Part shown: positions 4,597 through 16,562 of the stretch, one piece after another
Position numbering within the stretch: the first letter of the stretch is position 1
How the letters are laid out: each line of letters begins with the position of its first letter
IMG/VR virus record: IMGVR_UViG_2534682170_000012
DNA length: 28,108 nt
DNA from: a virus
Taxonomy: Duplodnaviria > Heunggongvirae > Uroviricota > Caudoviricetes
Strand: one strand, 5' to 3'
Notes under the pieces: generated by a model
What the model was told of the DNA's origin: nothing
What the model saw: the letters and a program-made list of their open reading frames with translations, nothing else
Databases searched by the model: none
Made by a program: the position numbers and the translations under genes

Positions 4597-4986
4597 ATGA
4601 TTGACGCTCATGACTTCACAAGATGGGTGCGCACACAGGACACCCGTCTGGCTCCCGTTCTTCAGGGATTATTTGATCTCTACATCCGTAGTCGTGACAA
4701 CAGAGCACGCACTACAAAACCGGAGAATGCAGACACCCTTTATTTCACAGTAGACGACTGCTACCGCGTGGACTTAACACCACACGGGCTGGCGTTGCGC
4801 TGCCTGACACCGCATGGCGAATCACTGCTGGCGTATTACGACTCCCCGACCTCCGTATTTGCGGCAATGCTGGCGCATCACACTGCTGGCGGGTGTGCCT
4901 CGCTGAGTGAATACACCGCTGAATTTAACCGCCTTTCCACCCTCTTCTCGCAGGAGTGGCAGCGCGTGACGGGATACCAGCCATGA
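4597..4986 (+). CDS. Hypothetical early protein immediately upstream of, and coupled to, the replication gene
   Basis: 129 aa ORF; its stop overlaps the gpA start (ATGA at 4983-4986). Confidence 0.45.
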   Translation: MIDAHDFTRWVRTQDTRLAPVLQGLFDLYIRSRDNRARTTKPENADTLYFTVDDCYRVDLTPHGLALRCLTPHGESLLAYYDSPTSVFAAMLAHHTAGGCASLSEYTAEFNRLSTLFSQEWQRVTGYQP

Positions 4987-7748
4987 GTGAGTTTGCATGG
5001 AGCTGGAATGAACCACGGCCAGCCATTGATCCGGACAGATTTACGGAGCGCAGGCAGGAAACTGAAACCGAGCTGCAACGCGCCATCCGTTACTACCTTG
5101 AGGCGGACAAAAAGGCCCGTAAAGAACAGGAAGCGAAGGAGGAAGCCTTTTTCGCACAATCCACCGTGGGTAAAAAACTCATGGCATCCCTTGAGGAAGC
5201 CGGACAGCGTGAAAAGCTGGCACAAAGCATCATCAGCAAGCGTCAGGCAACAGAACAAGACCCGGTGGCCCGTGCTTTTGCCACACTGAAGGTGCTTCCC
5301 GTTTATCTGCGTGAACCTCTGAGCCGCCACCTCTCTTTCCTGCGCAAAAAACAGGAATCCGATCGTCAGAAAGGCAAAAAGAGCTGGCAGGCTGAACGCT
5401 ACGCGCGCGGAACCCTGCGCAAAATATTCGTACGTCTGGACCGCACCGACAGCCGTTGGCTGACACCGGGTTATCGGTCCCTTGCCGGACGTGAACGCCT
5501 GGACGATTTGCTTTCCCTGCCGCAACTCAACAAACACCAGATACAGACGCTGGCCACCATGACGGCGGCGATGTTCAGCAGCACCTTCGAAAAACTCTGC
5601 GATGGTTTTGGCGCGACCGATGGCGAGCTGACCATGGATGTAACGCTGAAGGCGTATCAGATGCTGGCCCGCATGGCGTTACACTTGCACGCCATGCCTC
5701 CGCATTATGACGCACTGACAACAGACAAAGACCGGAGGAACGAACCGGACACAGAACTGCTGCCGGGCGCAATCCTTCGCCTGACCTGTGCGGAATGGTG
5801 GAAACGCAAACTGTGGCTGTTACGTTGCGAGTGGAGAGAAGAACAACTCCGCGCCGCCTGTCTGGTTTCCAGAAAAACATCGCCCTATTTGAGCCAGGAC
5901 GCGTTAAGCGAGTTTCGCGCACAGCGCGAGAAAACACGCGATTTCCTGAAAAGTTTCATGCTGGAAAACGAAGACGGGTTCACGATTGATCTCGAGACGG
6001 TGTATTACGCGGGAGTAAGTAACCCGGTTCACCGTAAGGCAGAAATGATGGCCACCATGAAGGGGCTGGAACTTCTGGCCGAAGCCCGTGGCGACAAAGC
6101 GGTGTTTCTGACTGTCACCTGCCCGTCAAAATACCACGCCACAACAGAGAACGGTCATCCGAATCCCAAATGGAACGGGGCCACCATGCGCGACTCCAGC
6201 GATTACCTGGTTAACACGTTTTTTGCGGCGGTCCGCAAAAAACTGAACCGCGACGGTCTTCGCTGGTATGGCATCCGCACGGTGGAGCCTCACCATGACG
6301 GCACCGTGCACTGGCATATGATGGTCTTTGCTCATCCGGAAGAAATCGACAGCATCGTGGCCATCACCCGCGATATTGCCATTCAGGAAGACCGCCACGA
6401 GCTGGGCAATGATATTACTCCGCGCTTTAAGGCGGAGTATGTCGACGGCTCAAAAGGCACACCAACCAGCTATATCGCGACCTACATCGGAAAGAACCTG
6501 GACAGCCGCGCCGTGGATGGCATCGACCCGAAAACGGGCAAGCCACGCGTTGACCACGAAACCGGAAAATCAATGGCCGAGAGTGTGGAGCGCGCCATCG
6601 GCTGGGCGCGCCTTCATCGGGTCCGCCAGTTCCAGTTCTTTGGCATCCCCTCCCGTCAGGTGTGGCGTGAACTGCGCCGCCTTGCCAGCCAGATGGCACG
6701 CAACCCGGAAGGCCCGCAACGACTGAAAGATGACGCAATGGATGCGGTACTCGCTGCCGCCGATGCCGGGTGTTTTGCCACCTACATTGAAAAACAGGGC
6801 GGCGTACTTGTTCCACGCAAAGACTACCTGATTCGCACCGCCTACGACCTCGCAGATGAGCTGAATGATTACGGCGAACAGAGCGTACAGATTTACGGGA
6901 TCTGGTCACCACTCATCGGGGAATCCTCCCGTGTGTGCACGCATCCGGATAACTGGAAACTGGTAAGACGTAAACCGGAAACGGAAGACAGCGCCCGCGA
7001 AAATGGTTTTGACCTTCAGGGCGGCCCTGCCGCCCCTTGGACTCGTGGCAATAACTGTCCCCGTGTACAGGAAACGGACAACAACGGGACAGAACAGCCG
7101 GAAGAACGGCCAGCACCGTGGCCGCGGCTTCCTGAAGGCGTTGACGTGAATGAATGGATGCGCTCACTGAAACGGCACGAACGCCGGGCACTGATGCGTT
7201 CGCTGCGTGACAAACAGGCAAAAAACAGCAGTGATGAAATGCAGAACTGGACACAGAGCCGCAAACAGCCACAGCCTTTGCCTGATAACCACGAGTTACT
7301 CGCTAAAGAATGGCGGGAGTCTGCTGAATCTCTCGGCCTGCATATCGGTGAACAGCAGATGCAGCACCTGTTACGAGGCGGCAGTCTGTACGTTGGCGGC
7401 AGCATCATTGCACCGCAGGGATTTGAAATTGTACGCAAACAGGATACCCGCCCGGACAGCCGAATCACGCAGCTCTGGCAACGCCTGAGTCGTAATCACG
7501 GCGTAAGCAGCACGGAGATCCGCCATAACCCGGTCGCCAGCTATCTGGAACAACTAGAGGCATCAGACCCTGAAGCCGCCGCACGCCTGGCATCCACACT
7601 TCAGCAAGACCAGAACACCATGAAAACACCCGTTACCGTACTTTCTGACATGCTGCGCGCCATCCGCGACGCAGAGCACGCACAGAGAATCAGTGAAACC
7701 ACTAAACATGCTCGCAAAAAAATCAGTTTATTGCATCGAACACGATAG
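4983..7748 (+). CDS. A: Rolling-circle replication initiation endonuclease, P2 gpA family
   Basis: VEPHHDGTVHWHMMVF (HUH-type motif) and paired tyrosines YIATYIGKN (Tyr codons at 6471-6473 and 6483-6485) match the remembered P2 gpA active region. Start taken as the ATG at 4983 rather than the ORF-track start at 4956. Confidence 0.88.
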   Translation: MSEFAWSWNEPRPAIDPDRFTERRQETETELQRAIRYYLEADKKARKEQEAKEEAFFAQSTVGKKLMASLEEAGQREKLAQSIISKRQATEQDPVARAFATLKVLPVYLREPLSRHLSFLRKKQESDRQKGKKSWQAERYARGTLRKIFVRLDRTDSRWLTPGYRSLAGRERLDDLLSLPQLNKHQIQTLATMTAAMFSSTFEKLCDGFGATDGELTMDVTLKAYQMLARMALHLHAMPPHYDALTTDKDRRNEPDTELLPGAILRLTCAEWWKRKLWLLRCEWREEQLRAACLVSRKTSPYLSQDALSEFRAQREKTRDFLKSFMLENEDGFTIDLETVYYAGVSNPVHRKAEMMATMKGLELLAEARGDKAVFLTVTCPSKYHATTENGHPNPKWNGATMRDSSDYLVNTFFAAVRKKLNRDGLRWYGIRTVEPHHDGTVHWHMMVFAHPEEIDSIVAITRDIAIQEDRHELGNDITPRFKAEYVDGSKGTPTSYIATYIGKNLDSRAVDGIDPKTGKPRVDHETGKSMAESVERAIGWARLHRVRQFQFFGIPSRQVWRELRRLASQMARNPEGPQRLKDDAMDAVLAAADAGCFATYIEKQGGVLVPRKDYLIRTAYDLADELNDYGEQSVQIYGIWSPLIGESSRVCTHPDNWKLVRRKPETEDSARENGFDLQGGPAAPWTRGNNCPRVQETDNNGTEQPEERPAPWPRLPEGVDVNEWMRSLKRHERRALMRSLRDKQAKNSSDEMQNWTQSRKQPQPLPDNHELLAKEWRESAESLGLHIGEQQMQHLLRGGSLYVGGSIIAPQGFEIVRKQDTRPDSRITQLWQRLSRNHGVSSTEIRHNPVASYLEQLEASDPEAAARLASTLQQDQNTMKTPVTVLSDMLRAIRDAEHAQRISETTKHARKKISLLHRTR

Positions 7749-7793: not shown

Positions 7794-8603
7794 TCAACCT
7801 ATCTTCTTATGAAGTAAAATTAATTTCTGTATTAATTTGGAATGAAACATTGATATATCAGAAATTCTTATTTCATTAGGCGAGTCTATATGATTGGAAA
7901 CTTCTTCCTCCAAGGAGTCACAAATACTTTCTAGATTTTCAATATCTGCATTTAATTCTGGAAAACTATTAAACAAATATAATGAATCCCGTAACTCTCC
8001 TAGTTTTGGTAAAAGAGTATTACTGAATACACTAAGAAACTCCTCTTCTGATAATGCCATGGAGTTTTTAAAACTTTGCACAACATCGAATGCCAACCCA
8101 TTAATTTTAGGCATAATTACTTCTCTTACCCAATACCCTTCATTAATAGCTTCTTTACGTTCTTTTCTATGTTGAACACAAGGAATAACAAAGGATGAAA
8201 CTAAAGCAAATAAAGAGATGCCAATAGAAATCCACTCTGGACCATTTTCCGGAACCTTTACAATATTATATATATCATAGGAATTTGGAACATCTTTGAA
8301 ATAATTAGCAAATAAATCTTTTTTGTTATCCCTTGCCAGAGATAACTTATGAAAGGTGTCGTTTGCCTTTTCACAAAACATCAAGCCATCATTCGGGTTT
8401 CCGGATAACAAAAACGGTGATGATATACCACTAAGTCCTGAATCGGAAATATAAAAAGGCGTGTTTGGATAAAGTGATTCATTACATTCAATGTTTTCTT
8501 TATTGGAAAAATCTGTCACAGAGCAAGCTGCGGGGAATATAAAAAAAATGACAGACAGCGCTGTCATTTTGATTTGAAAAATATTTTTAAAAGAAGGGAA
8601 CAT
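7794..8603 (-). CDS. Cargo gene 3: membrane protein with signal-peptide/lipobox-like N-terminus and one internal TM helix
   Basis: 269 aa, AT-rich. N-terminal hydrophobic segment ends in PAAC; internal hydrophobic helix WISIGISLFALVSSFVIPCV. Start 8603 overlaps gene 2; an alternative ATG is at 8565-8567. Confidence 0.5.
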   Translation of the reverse strand: MFPSFKNIFQIKMTALSVIFFIFPAACSVTDFSNKENIECNESLYPNTPFYISDSGLSGISSPFLLSGNPNDGLMFCEKANDTFHKLSLARDNKKDLFANYFKDVPNSYDIYNIVKVPENGPEWISIGISLFALVSSFVIPCVQHRKERKEAINEGYWVREVIMPKINGLAFDVVQSFKNSMALSEEEFLSVFSNTLLPKLGELRDSLYLFNSFPELNADIENLESICDSLEEEVSNHIDSPNEIRISDISMFHSKLIQKLILLHKKIG

Positions 8604-8931
8604 TTTTATGTAAGCCTCTCCTTACAGCTCTATCTAATTCAGAAAGCATACCTTCTTTATATTCACGACCATCAAGTACAGTGCGACTATAAAATTCGCT
8701 AGGCGAAGAAAATTTCGGCAAAACCGTTTCAAGCATACCTAGAAAGTATGAGCTTGATACAACAATTCCCTTGGGGATCAATAGATATAATCTATCATTA
8801 CTGGTTGTGCAAAATTTCCCTATATTAAAGTAATCATAGGCCTGGCGCCCATTAGAACGTCCAGCAAAAAGTTTCTTGTTACTATCTTTTACTAACTTAT
8901 TGAAATCTATGGTGATGTCAGCCATTTTCAT
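8587..8931 (-). CDS. Cargo gene 2: small STAS-like protein (anti-sigma-factor-antagonist-like)
   Basis: 114 aa; Ser-rich VVSSSYFLG (8737-8763) resembles the phospho-acceptor motif of SpoIIAA/RsbV-type STAS domains, and the size matches. GAGGA RBS; starts 10 nt after the gene 1 stop. Confidence 0.45.
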   Translation of the reverse strand: MKMADITIDFNKLVKDSNKKLFAGRSNGRQAYDYFNIGKFCTTSNDRLYLLIPKGIVVSSSYFLGMLETVLPKFSSPSEFYSRTVLDGREYKEGMLSELDRAVRRGLHKNVPFF

Positions 8932-8941
8932 GTACCTGTCC

Positions 8942-10321
8942 TCAAGTTCGCTGGGTGGCGTTTTCTGGTAGAGGAAAACGAATATTGATCATAACTCCAG
9001 GAAATCGAGCATCCTTCATACGCTTAAGATAGTTGCGATCCGGTTCAGATTCAAGCCCTACATCATTAAAAGGGTAAGTAAAAATGTCACTTTCCTCGTC
9101 ATTAACCAACCTTTGCTTTAATTTATATGATCCATCAAAGTTAATATGAGTACTACCAGATATTAAAGTCATTTTTATCCCACCTTTAATATCTCTTCCC
9201 ATTTTTTTAAGATTATCATGCATATCTTGAAATAACTTCAATAATTCAATTGTTCCGGTGCCAGAACTGTCAGTTTCTTTCTCGTTTTTACAACTCACCC
9301 GCCCTTGCAAGGCCGCTACTGTTGTTAATCCTTCCTTAAACATACCCTTTTTCTTAATATGCTTATTTATGTATGGATTAACTTGTTGACTTAATGAAAA
9401 ATGATCCTCAGGTAAATTATCAAAAGTTTCGCTGATAGTTTTCCCAAAATTGAAAACAGCCAACTCACATATGGGGTTTCGTACGTTATTATTAACAAAA
9501 CCTCTCAAATACCAGCGTGGGCGTTGCTCTAACCCACAATGCCGCTCCGCATTATCAAGGAGTTCCCCCATGCAGGAAGTTAAATGCTTTTCTGCCTCAT
9601 GTACAAGTTTTAAATTATGATCATTTAAGCATTCGTTTATGTATGCGGTAAATTTTTCAGCAGTGACATTTTTTCTGTCATGGGCAAAGGCAGAAGCATT
9701 CTCCTTTCCGATACTATCAGCAGAGAAGATTCGTTTCTTCGGATTCGCTTTTTTCGATGCTTCAGTAGAGTCCAGAACTTTACCTGGTGCAGCATTACTA
9801 ATCTCTTTTACAAGCCCGACATCCCTGATAATTTCAAGATACTGTTCATCTTTAGGGTAGATACCATTAATCTGAATCATCGTATCTTTGAAATTTATAT
9901 TACTTTGCCTTGCTGCTGTAAGAGCAACACCTAATAGACACTCAAGACCAAGACAGTGTTTTTTGTTTTTCTTGTAATCAAAAATATATGATTTCCATTT
10001 ACCTCTTGCAATTAATTTTGTGGCTGCACTAATAAATAGCAGAGATTTCTCTGGATTGTCATATAAGTCAAAATATTTAGGTATTAATATCTTCTCTGCG
10101 TCACGACGAAGAATTGATGAGTCATACTCTTTTATAATCGATATATTTTCAATGAACGTAGCGACTTGGTTTTGGACAGGAGTTGTTTCATCGGAAAAAC
10201 GAAGACTACCATTTTTCTCTTGCGCAGGCTTTTTTTTCTTAGCTCTCTCAACGCTACGAAGAAATCGCAACCATCCACGTAAAAAGGTTCTTTTAGAATC
10301 TTCTTTATTGATTTTTTTCAT
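8942..10321 (-). CDS. Cargo gene 1: large protein with GHKL/anti-sigma-kinase-like ATPase motifs
   Basis: ORF-track frame 8942-10417 begins at a TTG; the first ATG is at 10319-10321 (MKKINKED...). ELLDNAERHCG (9539-9565) resembles the N-box of SpoIIAB/RsbW-type Bergerat ATPases; Gly-rich DSSGTGT (9239-9271) lies downstream. Strongly AT-rich. Confidence 0.5.
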   Translation of the reverse strand: MKKINKEDSKRTFLRGWLRFLRSVERAKKKKPAQEKNGSLRFSDETTPVQNQVATFIENISIIKEYDSSILRRDAEKILIPKYFDLYDNPEKSLLFISAATKLIARGKWKSYIFDYKKNKKHCLGLECLLGVALTAARQSNINFKDTMIQINGIYPKDEQYLEIIRDVGLVKEISNAAPGKVLDSTEASKKANPKKRIFSADSIGKENASAFAHDRKNVTAEKFTAYINECLNDHNLKLVHEAEKHLTSCMGELLDNAERHCGLEQRPRWYLRGFVNNNVRNPICELAVFNFGKTISETFDNLPEDHFSLSQQVNPYINKHIKKKGMFKEGLTTVAALQGRVSCKNEKETDSSGTGTIELLKLFQDMHDNLKKMGRDIKGGIKMTLISGSTHINFDGSYKLKQRLVNDEESDIFTYPFNDVGLESEPDRNYLKRMKDARFPGVMINIRFPLPENATQRT

Positions 10322-10400
10322 TTCCAAATGTTCCTGCAAAGTTAACGTAGCCCACAAGGCGCTAAGTATACTTTCTGCTATATTTTTTTCACTATACAAA

Positions 10401-10428
10401 TGCACAATAGTGCACAAATTTGCACAAT
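10401..10428. repeat. Three direct TGCACAA repeats at 10-bp phasing upstream of the cargo operon; a fourth copy at 10493-10499
   Basis: TGCACAA at 10401, 10411 and 10421, read directly. Possible operator or packaging-recognition element. Confidence 0.3.
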
Positions 10429-10800
10429 TTTTTTGAACGACTTTTTGCCCTTCCGGCCCGCATGGTGGCTGGATCCGTCAAGGATCCGTGCGTGCACAAA
10501 AAAACGCATTTTTTCTGCGCGCAGGTGACGGGGGAACAGCCCGCGTTTCAGGGGGTAAATAGCATCCCCTGAACGATGTCGCAGCGACACAACAGAATGG
10601 CTGTATTTCTCACGCTGAGCGTGAAAAAGACGTGAGGGCTTTTGATTTGATGGGGTGAAAGGTAAGGCCGTCAAAATCGCACTGAGACGGCGAGAACATG
10701 CAGTCAACGCGGTGGGATTGCGTAAGAGTCTGACTGTCGATGATGGCAATCAGCAGGAAAGCGTCGTGAAATTATCTGACTGATACAGGAGCTGGAGAGT

Positions 10801-10825
10801 CGGGGCATAAATTTTTTATGCCCCG
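10801..10825. repeat. Perfect 11-bp-arm palindrome (CGGGGCATAAA ttt TTTATGCCCCG) between the cargo operon and the portal gene
   Basis: Read directly; not followed by a clear U-tract on either strand. Confidence 0.4.
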
Positions 10826-10851
10826 GCGAAGCAGCAGACAAGCGAAGCGCG

Positions 10852-11898
10852 TCAGGATGTGGGCTGGGTGTCTAACAGTGCGTAAGGGTTAAAGCGGATC
10901 ACCTCTTCGCCAAGCCAGTCATTGATGTGCTTCATGGCCTCCATGACGGGCATCAGCTCGTTAATTGCGTAAACCCGCGCGGCCTTCTCCACATCACCAA
11001 ACGCACTTTTTTCGCCCGGCATCGCCCCCATCAGTTGCGGCGGAACGCGGTGCGCAGCCAGCACATCATCACGGGATGCCGCCTTAACATTCATGAACTC
11101 ATCTTTTGCGGTGATCTGCTGGAACGGCAAAATTTGCACCCCTTCTTTGCCCCCGTTGGGCGCATGAATGAGCACGTTTTTAAATGCACCACCACCACGC
11201 GCACCCTGTAACGTTTCTTTCAGGGAGTCCATGCTTTCGCGGTTTACCTGCGCTGCACCGATGTAGATGATGCACCCGGCGTGGGATCCGTTGTCGTAGT
11301 ACAGTTTTCTGAACATGTCCGCCGAATGAGAAAGGCTGGCCGAGAGTAATGCGCCAAGATATTCCGGCATGCCGTAGATTTCCTGGTTAATATCCGGATT
11401 CATCAGGTGGCACACTTTGCCAGGGCGAAACTGGAACGCGTCCTTGCCATCCTGCACATACCACCATGATTCAAGATCGCTTCCGCGTCGCATGTATTTC
11501 GCCAGGGCGTGCCGTAATTTAAGCGGTTCGCCGAGCATATTGCTCCGAAGCTCAAGGAATGCGTTACCGAACACAAACCAGTCCAGCGCCAGCGCCGAGA
11601 AATCCTGCCGGGAAAGCAGCGGGTGCGGGATGTAGCAACCGAGTAATACATTGCGCTTAAAGTAAAGCGCAGACTGATGCCAGGACGTTTGCCGGGCGGC
11701 TCTTGCCAGACCGTACCAGTCCACCGGGGTTTCATACCACCGCCCGTTATCAGCACAGTACATATTGTCCAGCAGGTCATGCCCGGTCAGGCGATAAGGA
11801 CCATCAAATGTGAATGCACTGAGCGATGATTCTTTCCTGAGCGCATCAGCGAGATCAATGCGTGAACTCATGCGCACTTTTTTATTTTTTCTGCTCAT
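10852..11898 (-). CDS. Q: Portal protein, P2 gpQ family
   Basis: 348 aa; size, position and orientation (convergent with the cargo operon, upstream partner of the terminase) as in P2. Confidence 0.85.
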   Translation of the reverse strand: MSRKNKKVRMSSRIDLADALRKESSLSAFTFDGPYRLTGHDLLDNMYCADNGRWYETPVDWYGLARAARQTSWHQSALYFKRNVLLGCYIPHPLLSRQDFSALALDWFVFGNAFLELRSNMLGEPLKLRHALAKYMRRGSDLESWWYVQDGKDAFQFRPGKVCHLMNPDINQEIYGMPEYLGALLSASLSHSADMFRKLYYDNGSHAGCIIYIGAAQVNRESMDSLKETLQGARGGGAFKNVLIHAPNGGKEGVQILPFQQITAKDEFMNVKAASRDDVLAAHRVPPQLMGAMPGEKSAFGDVEKAARVYAINELMPVMEAMKHINDWLGEEVIRFNPYALLDTQPTS

Positions 11899-13649
11899 CA
11901 GAACTCCATAACCGTGAAACGCTCGTTTTCTCCTTCGCCGCCAATTGGTTCGTTAATGACAGCAAGCATGGTTGCCCACGCAAGGTCGCCGTGGCTGATC
12001 CCCCTCGCGCGGTCCGTTTCGTAAGTGATAAAGCCGCCCGGTGTTTTCACCTTACGCACGGCGTTAAAGGCCGCGACCAGCTCGCGTTCGGCGCGATCGT
12101 ATTCCCACCGCCCTGCACGCATTATTTGCAGCATTTTCAGTACCAGCGACCGTTTTGATGACAGCGTGAAGGTGTACGGAATAGCGGCAGGGAAAAACCG
12201 TTTCACTATCTGATAAACAGCCTCCCCGTTCCCGCCCGTCACATCAATGCCGATGTGTTCCACGTTGTAGTGACACGTGAACTCTTCAATGACTCTGGCC
12301 TGTTCTTCAAACTCCAGCCCCTGAACGCGTCGCGTCTCCACCGTTCGAAAACGGCCACCAGGAACAGCCGGAGGAACCACCACGGACACAGCGCCGCTGT
12401 CGCCGTTGCCACTGCTGCCGTTTGCGTCATACCCAATCCATACCGGGCGATTCCCCATCGGGCGGGGAGCAAAAGGTTTCCAGTCTTTCCAGTCGTCGTA
12501 TCCGTCAACACCACAGCCAATCAGGATATTCAGGTTAAATGCCGATTCCCCTTCGCGGACAAACTCACACATATAGAGATTGAGGAACTCGTCTTCGGTG
12601 TTTTCATCACGAATTTCATCAATATCGGTGTGTTTCCAGCCGTGATTAACCACATCTTCCAGCGTGACAATTTGCCGCCACGTCCGGTCAGGGCAGATAA
12701 GCCCGTTATGCAGCGTTTTCCAGTCCACAGAAAAACGCTGGCGTTTATGCGTGGCCTTTTTCTCGTTCCAGCGGTCGCCGTTCCAGTAGGCGTATGCCTC
12801 GTGCGTTTCGGTGGATGGCGTGGAGAAGTAGGTGCGCCGCAGTCCGCTGAGGGTTGCCATAGCGCCAGCCACCTTGCGCAGTTCAGCAAAGCGACTGACC
12901 CAGAAGAATTCATCAAAATAAAAATTGCCCGTATAGGACTGTGCCGACGCAGCAGAAGTGCCGAGAAAATGCAGCTCTGCGCCGTTGGAGAGGATGATTT
13001 TATCGCCCCCTTTCAGCTCCACATCAACTTCAGCCGCGGCCTTCTGAATAATGCTTTTAAACTGGAACGCCTGACGACGCGACGCAGACAAAAAAATCTG
13101 GTTACGCTGATAAGGTTGCACCACATCGTCACGCAGCGCCATCAGCAGTGCTTCCTGTGCAAAATACCAGGTCGCCCCAATCTGTCGGGATTTCAGGATC
13201 ATCCTGTTACGTATCCCGGCTTCCCTGCAAAGGGTCAGGGAGTCAAACCAGCCCCGCTGATGCCACTCCAGCCTGCTGATGATTTTTTCCCGCAGTGCGG
13301 CAATCTGTTCCGGCGTGAAATGATTTTTGAGTTTTTTCGCCCGGCCTTTCTTTCCTGCGGCCATCACATCCGGCTGGCCATCATGCAGCTTTTTAAGCTG
13401 CCGTGTCAGCAGGTCTATTTCCTTGAAGTCACCGCCTGTTTTATTCTGTTTTTCAGTAAGCTGGATGAGGCGCGCATCAATGGATTGCGTGACACGCTGC
13501 ACGGGTGGCGTTTCATCCCACTGGTCGCGTTTTTTCCACGCATAAATCGTGTTCGGGTTTATTCCCATCAGACGTGATATTTCTGCGGGCGGATAACCCT
13601 GCCAGTAAAGTTGTCGCGCACGCTGGCGCACAAAAGCGTCCTGAATCAT
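11898..13649 (-). CDS. P: Terminase large (ATPase) subunit, P2 gpP family
   Basis: 583 aa; N-terminus MIQDAFVRQRARQLYWQGYPPAEISRLMGINPNTIYAWKKRDQWDE is gpP-like. Divergent from the O-N-M-L operon as in P2. Confidence 0.88.
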   Translation of the reverse strand: MIQDAFVRQRARQLYWQGYPPAEISRLMGINPNTIYAWKKRDQWDETPPVQRVTQSIDARLIQLTEKQNKTGGDFKEIDLLTRQLKKLHDGQPDVMAAGKKGRAKKLKNHFTPEQIAALREKIISRLEWHQRGWFDSLTLCREAGIRNRMILKSRQIGATWYFAQEALLMALRDDVVQPYQRNQIFLSASRRQAFQFKSIIQKAAAEVDVELKGGDKIILSNGAELHFLGTSAASAQSYTGNFYFDEFFWVSRFAELRKVAGAMATLSGLRRTYFSTPSTETHEAYAYWNGDRWNEKKATHKRQRFSVDWKTLHNGLICPDRTWRQIVTLEDVVNHGWKHTDIDEIRDENTEDEFLNLYMCEFVREGESAFNLNILIGCGVDGYDDWKDWKPFAPRPMGNRPVWIGYDANGSSGNGDSGAVSVVVPPAVPGGRFRTVETRRVQGLEFEEQARVIEEFTCHYNVEHIGIDVTGGNGEAVYQIVKRFFPAAIPYTFTLSSKRSLVLKMLQIMRAGRWEYDRAERELVAAFNAVRKVKTPGGFITYETDRARGISHGDLAWATMLAVINEPIGGEGENERFTVMEF

Positions 13650-15761: not shown

Positions 15762-16562
15762 ATGATTACTCCTGCACAGCAACACTGGCAGAACGTGATG
15801 GCACAGCGCGCAGGCCGGGCGAATGAAGGCGTGGACCACGCCGCGCGTACCGCGCATGAAGAGGTGCTGTATCGTCTGCGTCTGGCACAGGCCCGACTTA
15901 AGGGGGTACAGGCCAGAAGCGCGAAAGCCGCCATCAAAAAAGAGTTGTTGCCGGACTTTTCCGGCTGGATTGAGGGAACGCTGGAGGCTGACGGCGGGCA
16001 GCAGGATGAAGTGATTGCCACGCTGATGGTGTGGGCAATTGACTGCGGCGATCTTCCGCTTGCGCTGCGTATTGGTGCGTATGTGGTCCGTCACAACCTC
16101 ATCATGCCGGATAACTTTGGCCGTACTGCTGCCACGGTACTGACCGAAGAAATCTGCAACCCGGTACTGACGCAGGCCGGGACGGATGCCGACGCGGATT
16201 TGTCCGCCTTTATCGAACCACTGGACACACTTTGGGAAATTGTCGCCAACCAGGATATGCCGGACGAAGTGCGAGCCAAATTATGCAAGGCGTGCGCCTT
16301 TGCCCGCCGTAGCCTGAGCGATGCGGACAGCATGGCCTCATCACTGAAGCTGCTGCGCGAAGCGATGCACCTGAACCCGAACGCAGGTGTGAAACGCGAG
16401 ATTGCAACCCTTTCCCGCGCTCTGAAAAAAGCCGATTCCGCAGCCGCACCAGAAGATGCCAGCACACCACAGGCGCAGAACGAAAGCAGCAAAAGTAAAA
16501 AGACAACGCGGAAGCCTGCAACACGAAAAACCACCGCGACGCAGAAGGCGAAGCGCGGTTAA
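15762..16562 (+). CDS. M: Terminase small (endonuclease) subunit, P2 gpM family
   Basis: 266 aa; ELLPDF, MPDEVRAKL and AGVKREI segments and the basic K/R-rich C-terminus match gpM. Confidence 0.85.
   Translation: MITPAQQHWQNVMAQRAGRANEGVDHAARTAHEEVLYRLRLAQARLKGVQARSAKAAIKKELLPDFSGWIEGTLEADGGQQDEVIATLMVWAIDCGDLPLALRIGAYVVRHNLIMPDNFGRTAATVLTEEICNPVLTQAGTDADADLSAFIEPLDTLWEIVANQDMPDEVRAKLCKACAFARRSLSDADSMASSLKLLREAMHLNPNAGVKREIATLSRALKKADSAAAPEDASTPQAQNESSKSKKTTRKPATRKTTATQKAKRG

Follow-up and report, generated by a model that had tools for sequence, protein, structure and literature searches.

The cos sites of P2, P4, and 186 have been described as a "55-bp core" (Ziermann and Calendar 1990, as cited in PMC9122126, PMC3931495, and PMC5694545), and this core is the only account given in the literature accessible to us, whose coverage extends neither to Ziermann and Calendar 1990 itself nor to the Christie and Calendar review. 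P2-type phages package from monomeric circles (PMC2231350), and in P2-like phages the region adjoining cos is a hotspot in which defense genes are found and cargo is rapidly swapped (PMC9122126). In a study of P2/P4 cosmids, better transduction was attributed to longer flanks around the 55-bp core (PMC9594776). For the P88-like phage group, the accessible literature contains no binding, cleavage, or packaging experiment.

Cohesive ends are annotated in the P2 and 186 records, and the P4 record begins with the 19-nt cohesive-end sequence of P2, so that positions in all three can be counted from the nick. Taking the first base of the 19-nt overhang as our reference, with the right and left ends of each record joined, we found the word TGCAT at -123, -111, -101, and -29 in P2 and at -124, -111, -101, and -29 in both 186 and P4, which also carry a related word at -35. 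The cut-proximal copy in P2 and P4 reads TGCATTAAAA at -29. Among these three elements, the bases between the words differ and the 60-bp spacer that separates the distal triplet from the proximal copy is unalignable; what is conserved is the words and where they stand, and nothing else. By BLAST, P4 and P2-type phages resemble each other only over about -38 to +22, and this stretch is the 55-bp core of the literature. The core includes the proximal word and excludes the distal three, so the distal triplet could be an accessory rather than an essential part of the site. The distal words are too short to be detected by BLAST, which may be why they are absent from annotation. The flank effect seen with the cosmids, for which no coordinates are given, agrees with a functional distal element, and descriptions of the triplet in P2 and P4 may already exist.

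We analyzed a 28,108-nt stretch of viral DNA (IMG/VR record IMGVR_UViG_2534682170_000012; hereafter, the window) that, judging from its sequence, is a P88-like (Xuanwuvirus, P2 family) Escherichia coli prophage; its nearest phage records by BLAST are Xuanwuvirus (P88-like) phages. An integrase gene lies at the left end of the window and the replication gene A at approximately 4956 to 7748, followed by an AT-rich, minus-strand cargo operon of three genes (7794 to 10321; 459, 114, and 269 amino acids) whose ATG is at 10321 and which is not part of the element described here. To the right lies the portal gene Q (10852 to 11898, minus strand), which is the right-hand neighbor of the cos region as it is in P2, and beyond Q lies the large terminase gene P (11898 to 13649, minus strand), after which come genes O, N, and M on the plus strand. 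Between the cargo and the 3' end of Q, at 10401 to 10499, is an array of short repeats, and this order of A, cargo, array, and Q is the same in P2, placing the array where the cos of a P2-family phage is expected. The genes for both terminase proteins, gpP and gpM, are carried by the same element, as is also expected of a P2-family cos, and they are 44% and 37% identical, respectively, to their P2 counterparts.

The array consists of four copies of TGCACAA, all on the plus strand. A distal triplet, R1 to R3, occupies 10401 to 10427 (copies at 10401-10407, 10411-10417, and 10421-10427) and marks where the conserved cos block begins on its left side, while a cos-proximal copy, R4, lies at 10493-10499 and is followed by an A tract, the two together occupying 10493 to 10505. 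These positions, which were first recognized in a first-pass annotation of the same DNA, were recovered both by direct reading and by pattern search. As that annotation had also noted, the array sits upstream of the minus-strand cargo operon at the junction of AT-rich and GC-rich DNA, where GC content rises from 0.376 (10001 to 10500) to 0.528 (10501 to 11000). Over the whole window, TGCACAA itself shows no excess (10 copies observed versus 7.15 expected), but its layout is distinctive: in a de novo search of both strands of the entire window for any 5-mer present three times at 9- to 12-bp intervals with a fourth copy 66 to 78 bp further on, the array was the sole match. When the scan was widened slightly to accept three copies 9 to 13 bp apart, no coding control had the layout, and of 1520 dinucleotide-preserving shuffles made from comparable 1.2-kb regions, two had it.

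We then placed the array relative to a predicted cut. The window interval reads ...caaaTGCACAAtagTGCACAAattTGCACAAtttttttgaacgactttttgcccttccggcccgcatggtggctGGATCCGTcaaGGATCCGTgcgTGCACAAaaaaacgcattttttctgcgcgca|GGTGACGGGGGAACAGCCC..., where the bar marks the predicted nick, and the 19-nt plus-strand sequence GGTGACGGGGGAACAGCCC at 10524 to 10542 is the predicted equivalent of cosN by homology to the P2 end. In direct comparison, 13 of its 19 positions agree with GGCGAGGCGGGGAAAGCAC, the cohesive end annotated in P2. The flanks of the cut are similar, reading GCGCGCA|GG in the window and GCGGGCG|GG in P2, and the distance from R4 corresponds as well. We infer that terminase would cut at 10524-10542 and leave 5' cohesive ends. 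Counted from this predicted nick, the TGCACAA copies stand at -123, -113, -103, and -31, and the same positions are occupied in P88, in P88_4B11, and in phiT5282H, a phage of a different genus whose first copy reads TGCACGA. The start-to-start distance between R3 and R4 is 72 bp in all of these, as it is in P2, 186, P4, and many loci in genomes, and the window therefore has the 3+1 architecture, with three phased words, a 72-bp interval, and a fourth word some 30 bp from the nick, that we defined here from P2, 186, and P4. By homology, then, the array shares its architecture with the arrays of P2, 186, and P4 and differs from them in its word. Separately, the linear record of P88_4B11 (LR595891) is opened within the R3-R4 spacer, at the equivalent of window position 10445/10446. 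We considered these ends as physical ends and rejected them, as they fall inside the spacer and homology to P2 puts the cut 78 bp further right; they are probably not the physical ends of the genome.

Because the array lies at the head of a cargo operon, it could belong to the cargo or to the phage, and the first-pass annotation had left open whether it was an operator or activator array or a terminase recognition element near cos. It proposed that the region between A and Q be aligned with that of related phages, and in that alignment the repeats are conserved outside the cargo, in P88, P2, 186, P4, and distant genera. BLAST alignments to P88-like phages start at query positions 77 to 79, corresponding to window positions 10399 to 10401, and a 151-nt probe matched 1140 of 5426 complete E. 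coli genomes with alignments starting at probe positions 2 to 4, which again corresponds to 10399 to 10401, where R1 begins. The matching genomes carry other cargo and nearly always a P88-like flank on the Q side, and in P88 and P88_4B11 a different cargo, on the opposite strand, terminates just before the first repeat. As similarity to relatives with unrelated cargo begins at the first repeat, the comparison indicates that the repeats are phage backbone and not cargo.

The same boundary is seen in an anchored comparison of 13 distinct P88/Novemvirus-type sequences from several genera (Citrobacter, Serratia, Symbiopectobacterium, Enterobacter, Pantoea, Mixta, a "Vagococcus" contig, and phages P88 of Escherichia and phiT5282H of Enterobacter). 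The majority fraction was 0.51 in the 12 columns to the left of R1, none of which was invariant, compared with 0.984 in the repeat words, 0.77 in the spacer, and 0.976 in the predicted cohesive-end sequence. What had been called a structured non-coding element at the cargo junction is thus conserved as well as non-random in its layout. The contig assigned to Vagococcus sp. WN89Y (NZ_JBQPOM010000071.1) has a portal gene 100% identical to that of the window and the same cos region, and this Firmicute assembly is probably mislabeled or contaminated with E. coli. In some E. coli prophages, such as that of E2348/69, similarity begins at 10372 instead of 10401, and the 29 bp adjoining R1 (10372-10400) thus seem to be common to some differing cargo modules.

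The three cargo proteins had no match in Pfam, PADLOC, or NCBIfam, were assigned only to PHROGs of unknown function (phrog_3364, E = 2e-7), and are each named "hypothetical protein" in RefSeq. Lying as it does in the known P2 defense hotspot, the operon at 7794-10321 is a candidate for an uncharacterized defense system. A candidate promoter for it, recognized by its match to the sigma-70 consensus (GTGAAA, 16 nt, TATACT), is located on the minus strand at 10365 to 10392, in cargo-specific DNA to the left of the homology break at 10401 and 9 bp from R1; its -35-like hexamer falls within the 29 bp shared by some cargo modules. The array would therefore lie roughly 9 to 35 bp upstream of the -35 of this promoter, and in P2 the annotated starts of the old-tin mRNA lie 26 to 32 bp from the first TGCAT, so that the -35 region of that cargo promoter overlaps R1, as might be expected if the repeats were an operator, activator, or UP-element array that drives the leftward cargo promoter. 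Such a role nevertheless seems quite improbable to us as an account of the array. The repeats are kept whatever the identity or orientation of the cargo, including in P88 and P88_4B11, where the cargo is reversed and ends before the array; P4-like satellites retain them too, after the 3' end of psu; the promoter model leaves unexplained why there is a fourth copy, why the spacing is 72 bp, and why the distance to the cohesive end is fixed; and the window has no TGCACAA in its immunity and early control region. We accordingly set aside the operator/activator array as the function of the repeats, since they do not co-occur with one cargo but are carried beside unrelated and reversed cargo and by satellites. 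Of the two roles first suggested, then, recognition by terminase near cos is the one supported, and we reject the regulatory one on the ground that the repeats stay in place when the cargo changes. It is possible that the array, or terminase bound there, affects cargo transcription secondarily, but this cannot be the reason for its conservation.

To determine how widely the architecture recurs, we collected 80 species-level loci by means of their portal protein, of which 76 had enough downstream sequence to scan. An unbiased scan for the 3+1 layout downstream of the portal gene was positive at 20 of these 76 loci, compared with none in coding controls, 2 on the opposite strand, and 2 in the 1520 shuffles, and comparison anchored on cos revealed further loci that have the 3+1 layout with degenerate words. 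The words fall into classes. Loci of the TGCAC class have spacings of 10, 10, and 72 bp, and those of the GCATG or TGCAT class have spacings of 13, 10, and 72 bp. Two further classes come from the cos-anchored comparison rather than from the exact-word scan: GCGTCA with a proximal TGCGTT in Collimonas, and CGCA(A/T) with a proximal TGCAT in Photorhabdus and Xenorhabdus, in which the distal CGCAA and CGCAT are not strict matches to the proximal word. When the word changes between clades, it usually does so in the distal and proximal copies together (15 of 15 loci for GCAC, and 9 of 15 for GCAT). About half of the portal loci have no confident cos within 1.5 kb, and we do not claim that the architecture is universal. 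Among 120 viral contigs matching a triple GCACAA, a fourth copy lies exactly 72 bp further on in 87, the array adjoins a portal gene in 85, and the overhang is identical in 79; four more contigs have a complete cos array and no portal match, all of them near the end of the retrieved stretch, and the remaining matches are unrelated.

The satellites provide a more stringent comparison, as they share just packaging with their helpers. Using Psu, we collected 80 satellite loci, with Psu as little as 62% (62 to 64%) identical to that of P4, and reduced them to 47 distinct cos regions. All 47 carry ATGCAT at -124, GTGCATG at -111, TTGCATG at -101, and CTGCATTAAAA at -29, and across them the majority fraction is 0.998 in the words and 0.92 in the spacer, where 7 of 60 columns are invariant. 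In P4, where psu ends ahead of the array, the cargo hotspot (gop/beta) is on the opposite side of cos, so regulation of cargo cannot explain why the array is retained. Given that only packaging is shared, the array is best read as a cosB-like element for recognition by terminase.

Since the homology break falls exactly at R1 in hundreds of genomes, and since the hotspot beside cos is known for fast swapping of cargo (PMC9122126), the repeats might instead be regarded as a recombination junction for cargo exchange at the defense hotspot and not as a packaging signal. A break of this sharpness would, however, be no less expected wherever an essential element ends, the repeats have no associated recombinase, and both the fixed geometry relative to the cohesive end and the retention of the array in satellites whose hotspot is on the other side argue for packaging; we consider a junction function very unlikely. 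A recognition role within cos, by comparison, explains why the geometry is fixed, why the array adjoins the cut, why its outer boundary is sharp, and why satellites retain it. Collectively, these data make it likely, in our judgment, that in the cos of this P88-like, P2-family prophage the four TGCACAA copies make up the part recognized by protein, functionally analogous to cosB of lambda. The array is most likely an ordinary but unannotated element that recurs in many P2-like phages and in all of the P4-like satellites examined.

The remaining features of the interval were evaluated in light of this assignment. The spacer between R3 and R4 (10428 to 10492, plus strand) contains a T7 tract at 10428-10434, a conserved CCCTTCC box at approximately 10448-10454, and both copies of an 8-bp direct repeat, GGATCCGT. 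A scan for terminators listed GTGCACAAATTTGCAC followed by AATTTTTTTG at 10410-10425, raising the idea that rightward transcription is kept out of cos by an intrinsic terminator made up of R2, R3, and the T tract. Such a hairpin has a stem of 5 pairs and a predicted stability of -6.1 kcal/mol (z = -0.61), no better than that of shuffled sequences, and the arrays of P2, 186, and P4 have neither such a hairpin nor a T tract, making a terminator here extremely improbable. An imperfect 15-nt inverted repeat at 10489 to 10523 (pair I1, TGCGTGCACAAAAAA / TTTTTTCTGCGCGCA) connects R4 with the predicted nick and has a folding energy of -17.8 kcal/mol (z = -2.3), calculated with RNA rather than DNA parameters; it was not conserved in the other genera of the anchored comparison. 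No Rfam family reached its gathering score, the only match being gyrA (22 bits versus a threshold of 45) on the hairpin of the presumed Q terminator. This hairpin, a perfect 11-bp inverted repeat (CGGGGCATAAA / TTTATGCCCCG) at 10801-10825 just downstream of Q, corresponds in position to the tQ terminator annotated in P2.

The direct repeat of GGATCCGT had been reported together with the TGCACAA copies, and pattern search confirmed it at 10471-10478 and 10482-10489; the window has three copies of this sequence in all, versus 0.96 expected. The repeat is real in the window, but it is not conserved as a pair, a conserved GATC position being matched by the proximal copy alone. The distal copy (10471 to 10478, plus strand), whose GATC lies at 10472, occurs only in the E. 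coli P88 lineage and is missing in the Citrobacter, Enterobacter, Pantoea, and Serratia relatives, and a GATC at -52 was present in 1 of 37 anchored loci. In the proximal copy (10482 to 10489, plus strand), the GATC at 10483-10486 corresponds to -41 and is a positionally conserved Dam-type site: 21 of the 37 anchored P2-like cos regions, from many genera, have a GATC starting between -42 and -40, compared with an average of 2.9 per 14-nt window in the background. P2, 186, and P4 have no GATC at -42 to -40. On this alignment, what some clades conserve is one Dam-type site close to R4 and not the direct repeat. Some sites of the Photorhabdus/Xenorhabdus type have extra GATCs at -96/-93 and -85.

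We next asked which protein might read the words. The gpP of the window is a large terminase of full extent, combining an ATPase domain with an RNaseH-like nuclease domain (Terminase_6N, Terminase_6C, and Terminase_5), and residues 6 to 63 at its N terminus (13461 to 13634, minus strand) match a helix-turn-helix (PF06056, 92 bits; HTH_23, 29.7 bits). Two residues before the conserved Trp of its putative recognition helix, the window has Tyr36 and P2 has Gln42. At all 32 loci that have both a cos anchor and gpP, this residue tracks the proximal word, Tyr being found with GCAC (15 loci), Gln or His with GCAT (15 loci), and Ala with GCGT (2 loci), in a comparison that covered gpP only. Five of the 32 (L024 to L028) have a P2-like overhang yet CACAA repeats, and these too obey the pairing of residue and word. 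The co-variation favors gpP as the reader, but because the clades are few, with only about three or four independent changes of word, it is confounded by phylogeny.

The small terminase subunit, gpM (15762 to 16562, plus strand; PF05944), is a candidate for an alternative or accessory binder. The usual fold of small terminases consists of a helix-turn-helix plus an oligomerization core. The AlphaFold model of gpM (pLDDT 82.8) is unlike this fold, being all-alpha and TPR-like with a disordered, lysine/arginine-rich tail at residues 230 to 266; searched against structures, it matched no DNA-binding fold, helix-turn-helix, or TerS and had only weak matches to TPR proteins, and by sequence gpM had no relative among solved structures. 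Within the packaging explanation, we see about an even chance that gpP is the reader of the words. A more specific proposal is that packaging specificity in the P2 family is read not by the small subunit but by the helix-turn-helix at the N terminus of the large one, with several copies docking on the phased 3+1 array and a single helix position (Tyr, Gln/His, or Ala) setting the fifth base of the word (TGCAC, TGCAT, or TGCGT); this we put forward tentatively, as a rather unlikely but specific possibility.

Alternatively, the array could function within cos and be read by a host nucleoid protein, or through DNA shape (bending), in place of sequence-specific terminase contacts. In favor of this idea, the copies share one face of the helix, R3 and R4 are bordered by T and A tracts, a 72-bp loop would require strong bending, and the gpM model has no DNA-binding fold. 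A host factor, on the other hand, predicts one word per host, and both TGCACAA and TGCAT are present in E. coli, where a full P4-type (TGCAT) cos is found in 1069 complete genomes alongside the 1140 of 5426 with the TGCACAA type. Moreover, the word tracks a residue in a phage helix-turn-helix, and the IHF consensus WATCAANNNNTTR, allowing up to one mismatch, has no match across 9988-13475, including the spacer. We therefore think it unlikely that the words are read by a host protein or by shape.

Returning to recognition by terminase, the observed architecture, conservation, homology boundary, and protein/DNA co-variation suggest a model in which terminase would bind the array, with R1 to R3 on one face of the helix and R4 72 bp away, all on the cargo side of the predicted cleavage at 10524-10542. 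Bending or wrapping of the 72-bp spacer could then allow the distal and proximal copies to meet, which would position the nuclease at the adjacent cleavage site and select the DNA for packaging. In such a model, the most likely reader would be the N-terminal helix-turn-helix of gpP, with gpM as a partner or scaffold, and the cargo operon would merely abut the outer edge of an essential element.

This moves the array from a possible regulator of defense cargo to the outer boundary of a packaging signal, and, if it is that boundary, the swapping of cargo in the hotspot would halt at exactly the first base of R1. The prediction follows that a working cos cassette of the P2/P4/P88 type needs about 125 bp on the cargo side of the cut and not just the 55-bp core, which is relevant to the design of cosmids and transducing particles, to automatic delimitation of hotspot cargo, and to the placement of genome ends in phage records. 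The correspondence between word and helix is a testable hypothesis for the specificity of terminase and hence for the compatibility of helpers and satellites. If the gpP helix-turn-helix code were true, the switch to TGCACAA in the P88 lineage would blind its terminase to the TGCAT-type cos of satellites and would represent an escape from molecular piracy through packaging specificity. Such an escape would fit the samples at hand, limited as they are: no P4-like satellite with a TGCACAA array was seen among the 120 viral-contig matches, and all 80 Psu loci were of the TGCAT type, even though each type of element is found in about 20% of complete E. coli genomes.

Among known packaging sites, the array can be compared with three. 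The pac site of P1 consists of clusters of Dam-methylated TGATCA/G hexamers that flank the cleavage region. The array resembles it in having a short word clustered in two groups, with a conserved GATC near the proximal group, but TGCACAA contains no GATC, only one GATC (-41) is conserved, and the site would have defined cohesive ends and no headful series. In lambda, cosB comprises the sites R3-I1-R2-R1, which are bound by the winged helix of the small terminase subunit gpNu1, with a bend provided by IHF. Both sites have short repeats on one side of the nick, arranged as proximal and distal groups with a spacer to be bent, and by analogy both would serve to anchor terminase beside the cut. They have no sequence relationship, however; the spacer of the window lacks an IHF consensus, and the candidate reader of its words is a helix-turn-helix fused to the large subunit rather than a winged helix in the small one. 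The closest counterparts are the cos sites of P2, P4, and 186. These differ from the window in word and spacing (TGCAT at 12-13 and 10 bp, versus TGCACAA at 10 and 10 bp) and at 6 of the 19 overhang positions, and the window region has no BLAST similarity to P2. In each case, however, the site lies between the A-side cargo and the portal gene Q and combines a homologous GC-rich 19-nt end, a proximal TGCA-type word with an A tract, three phased distal words, a 72-bp spacing, and homologous terminase genes.
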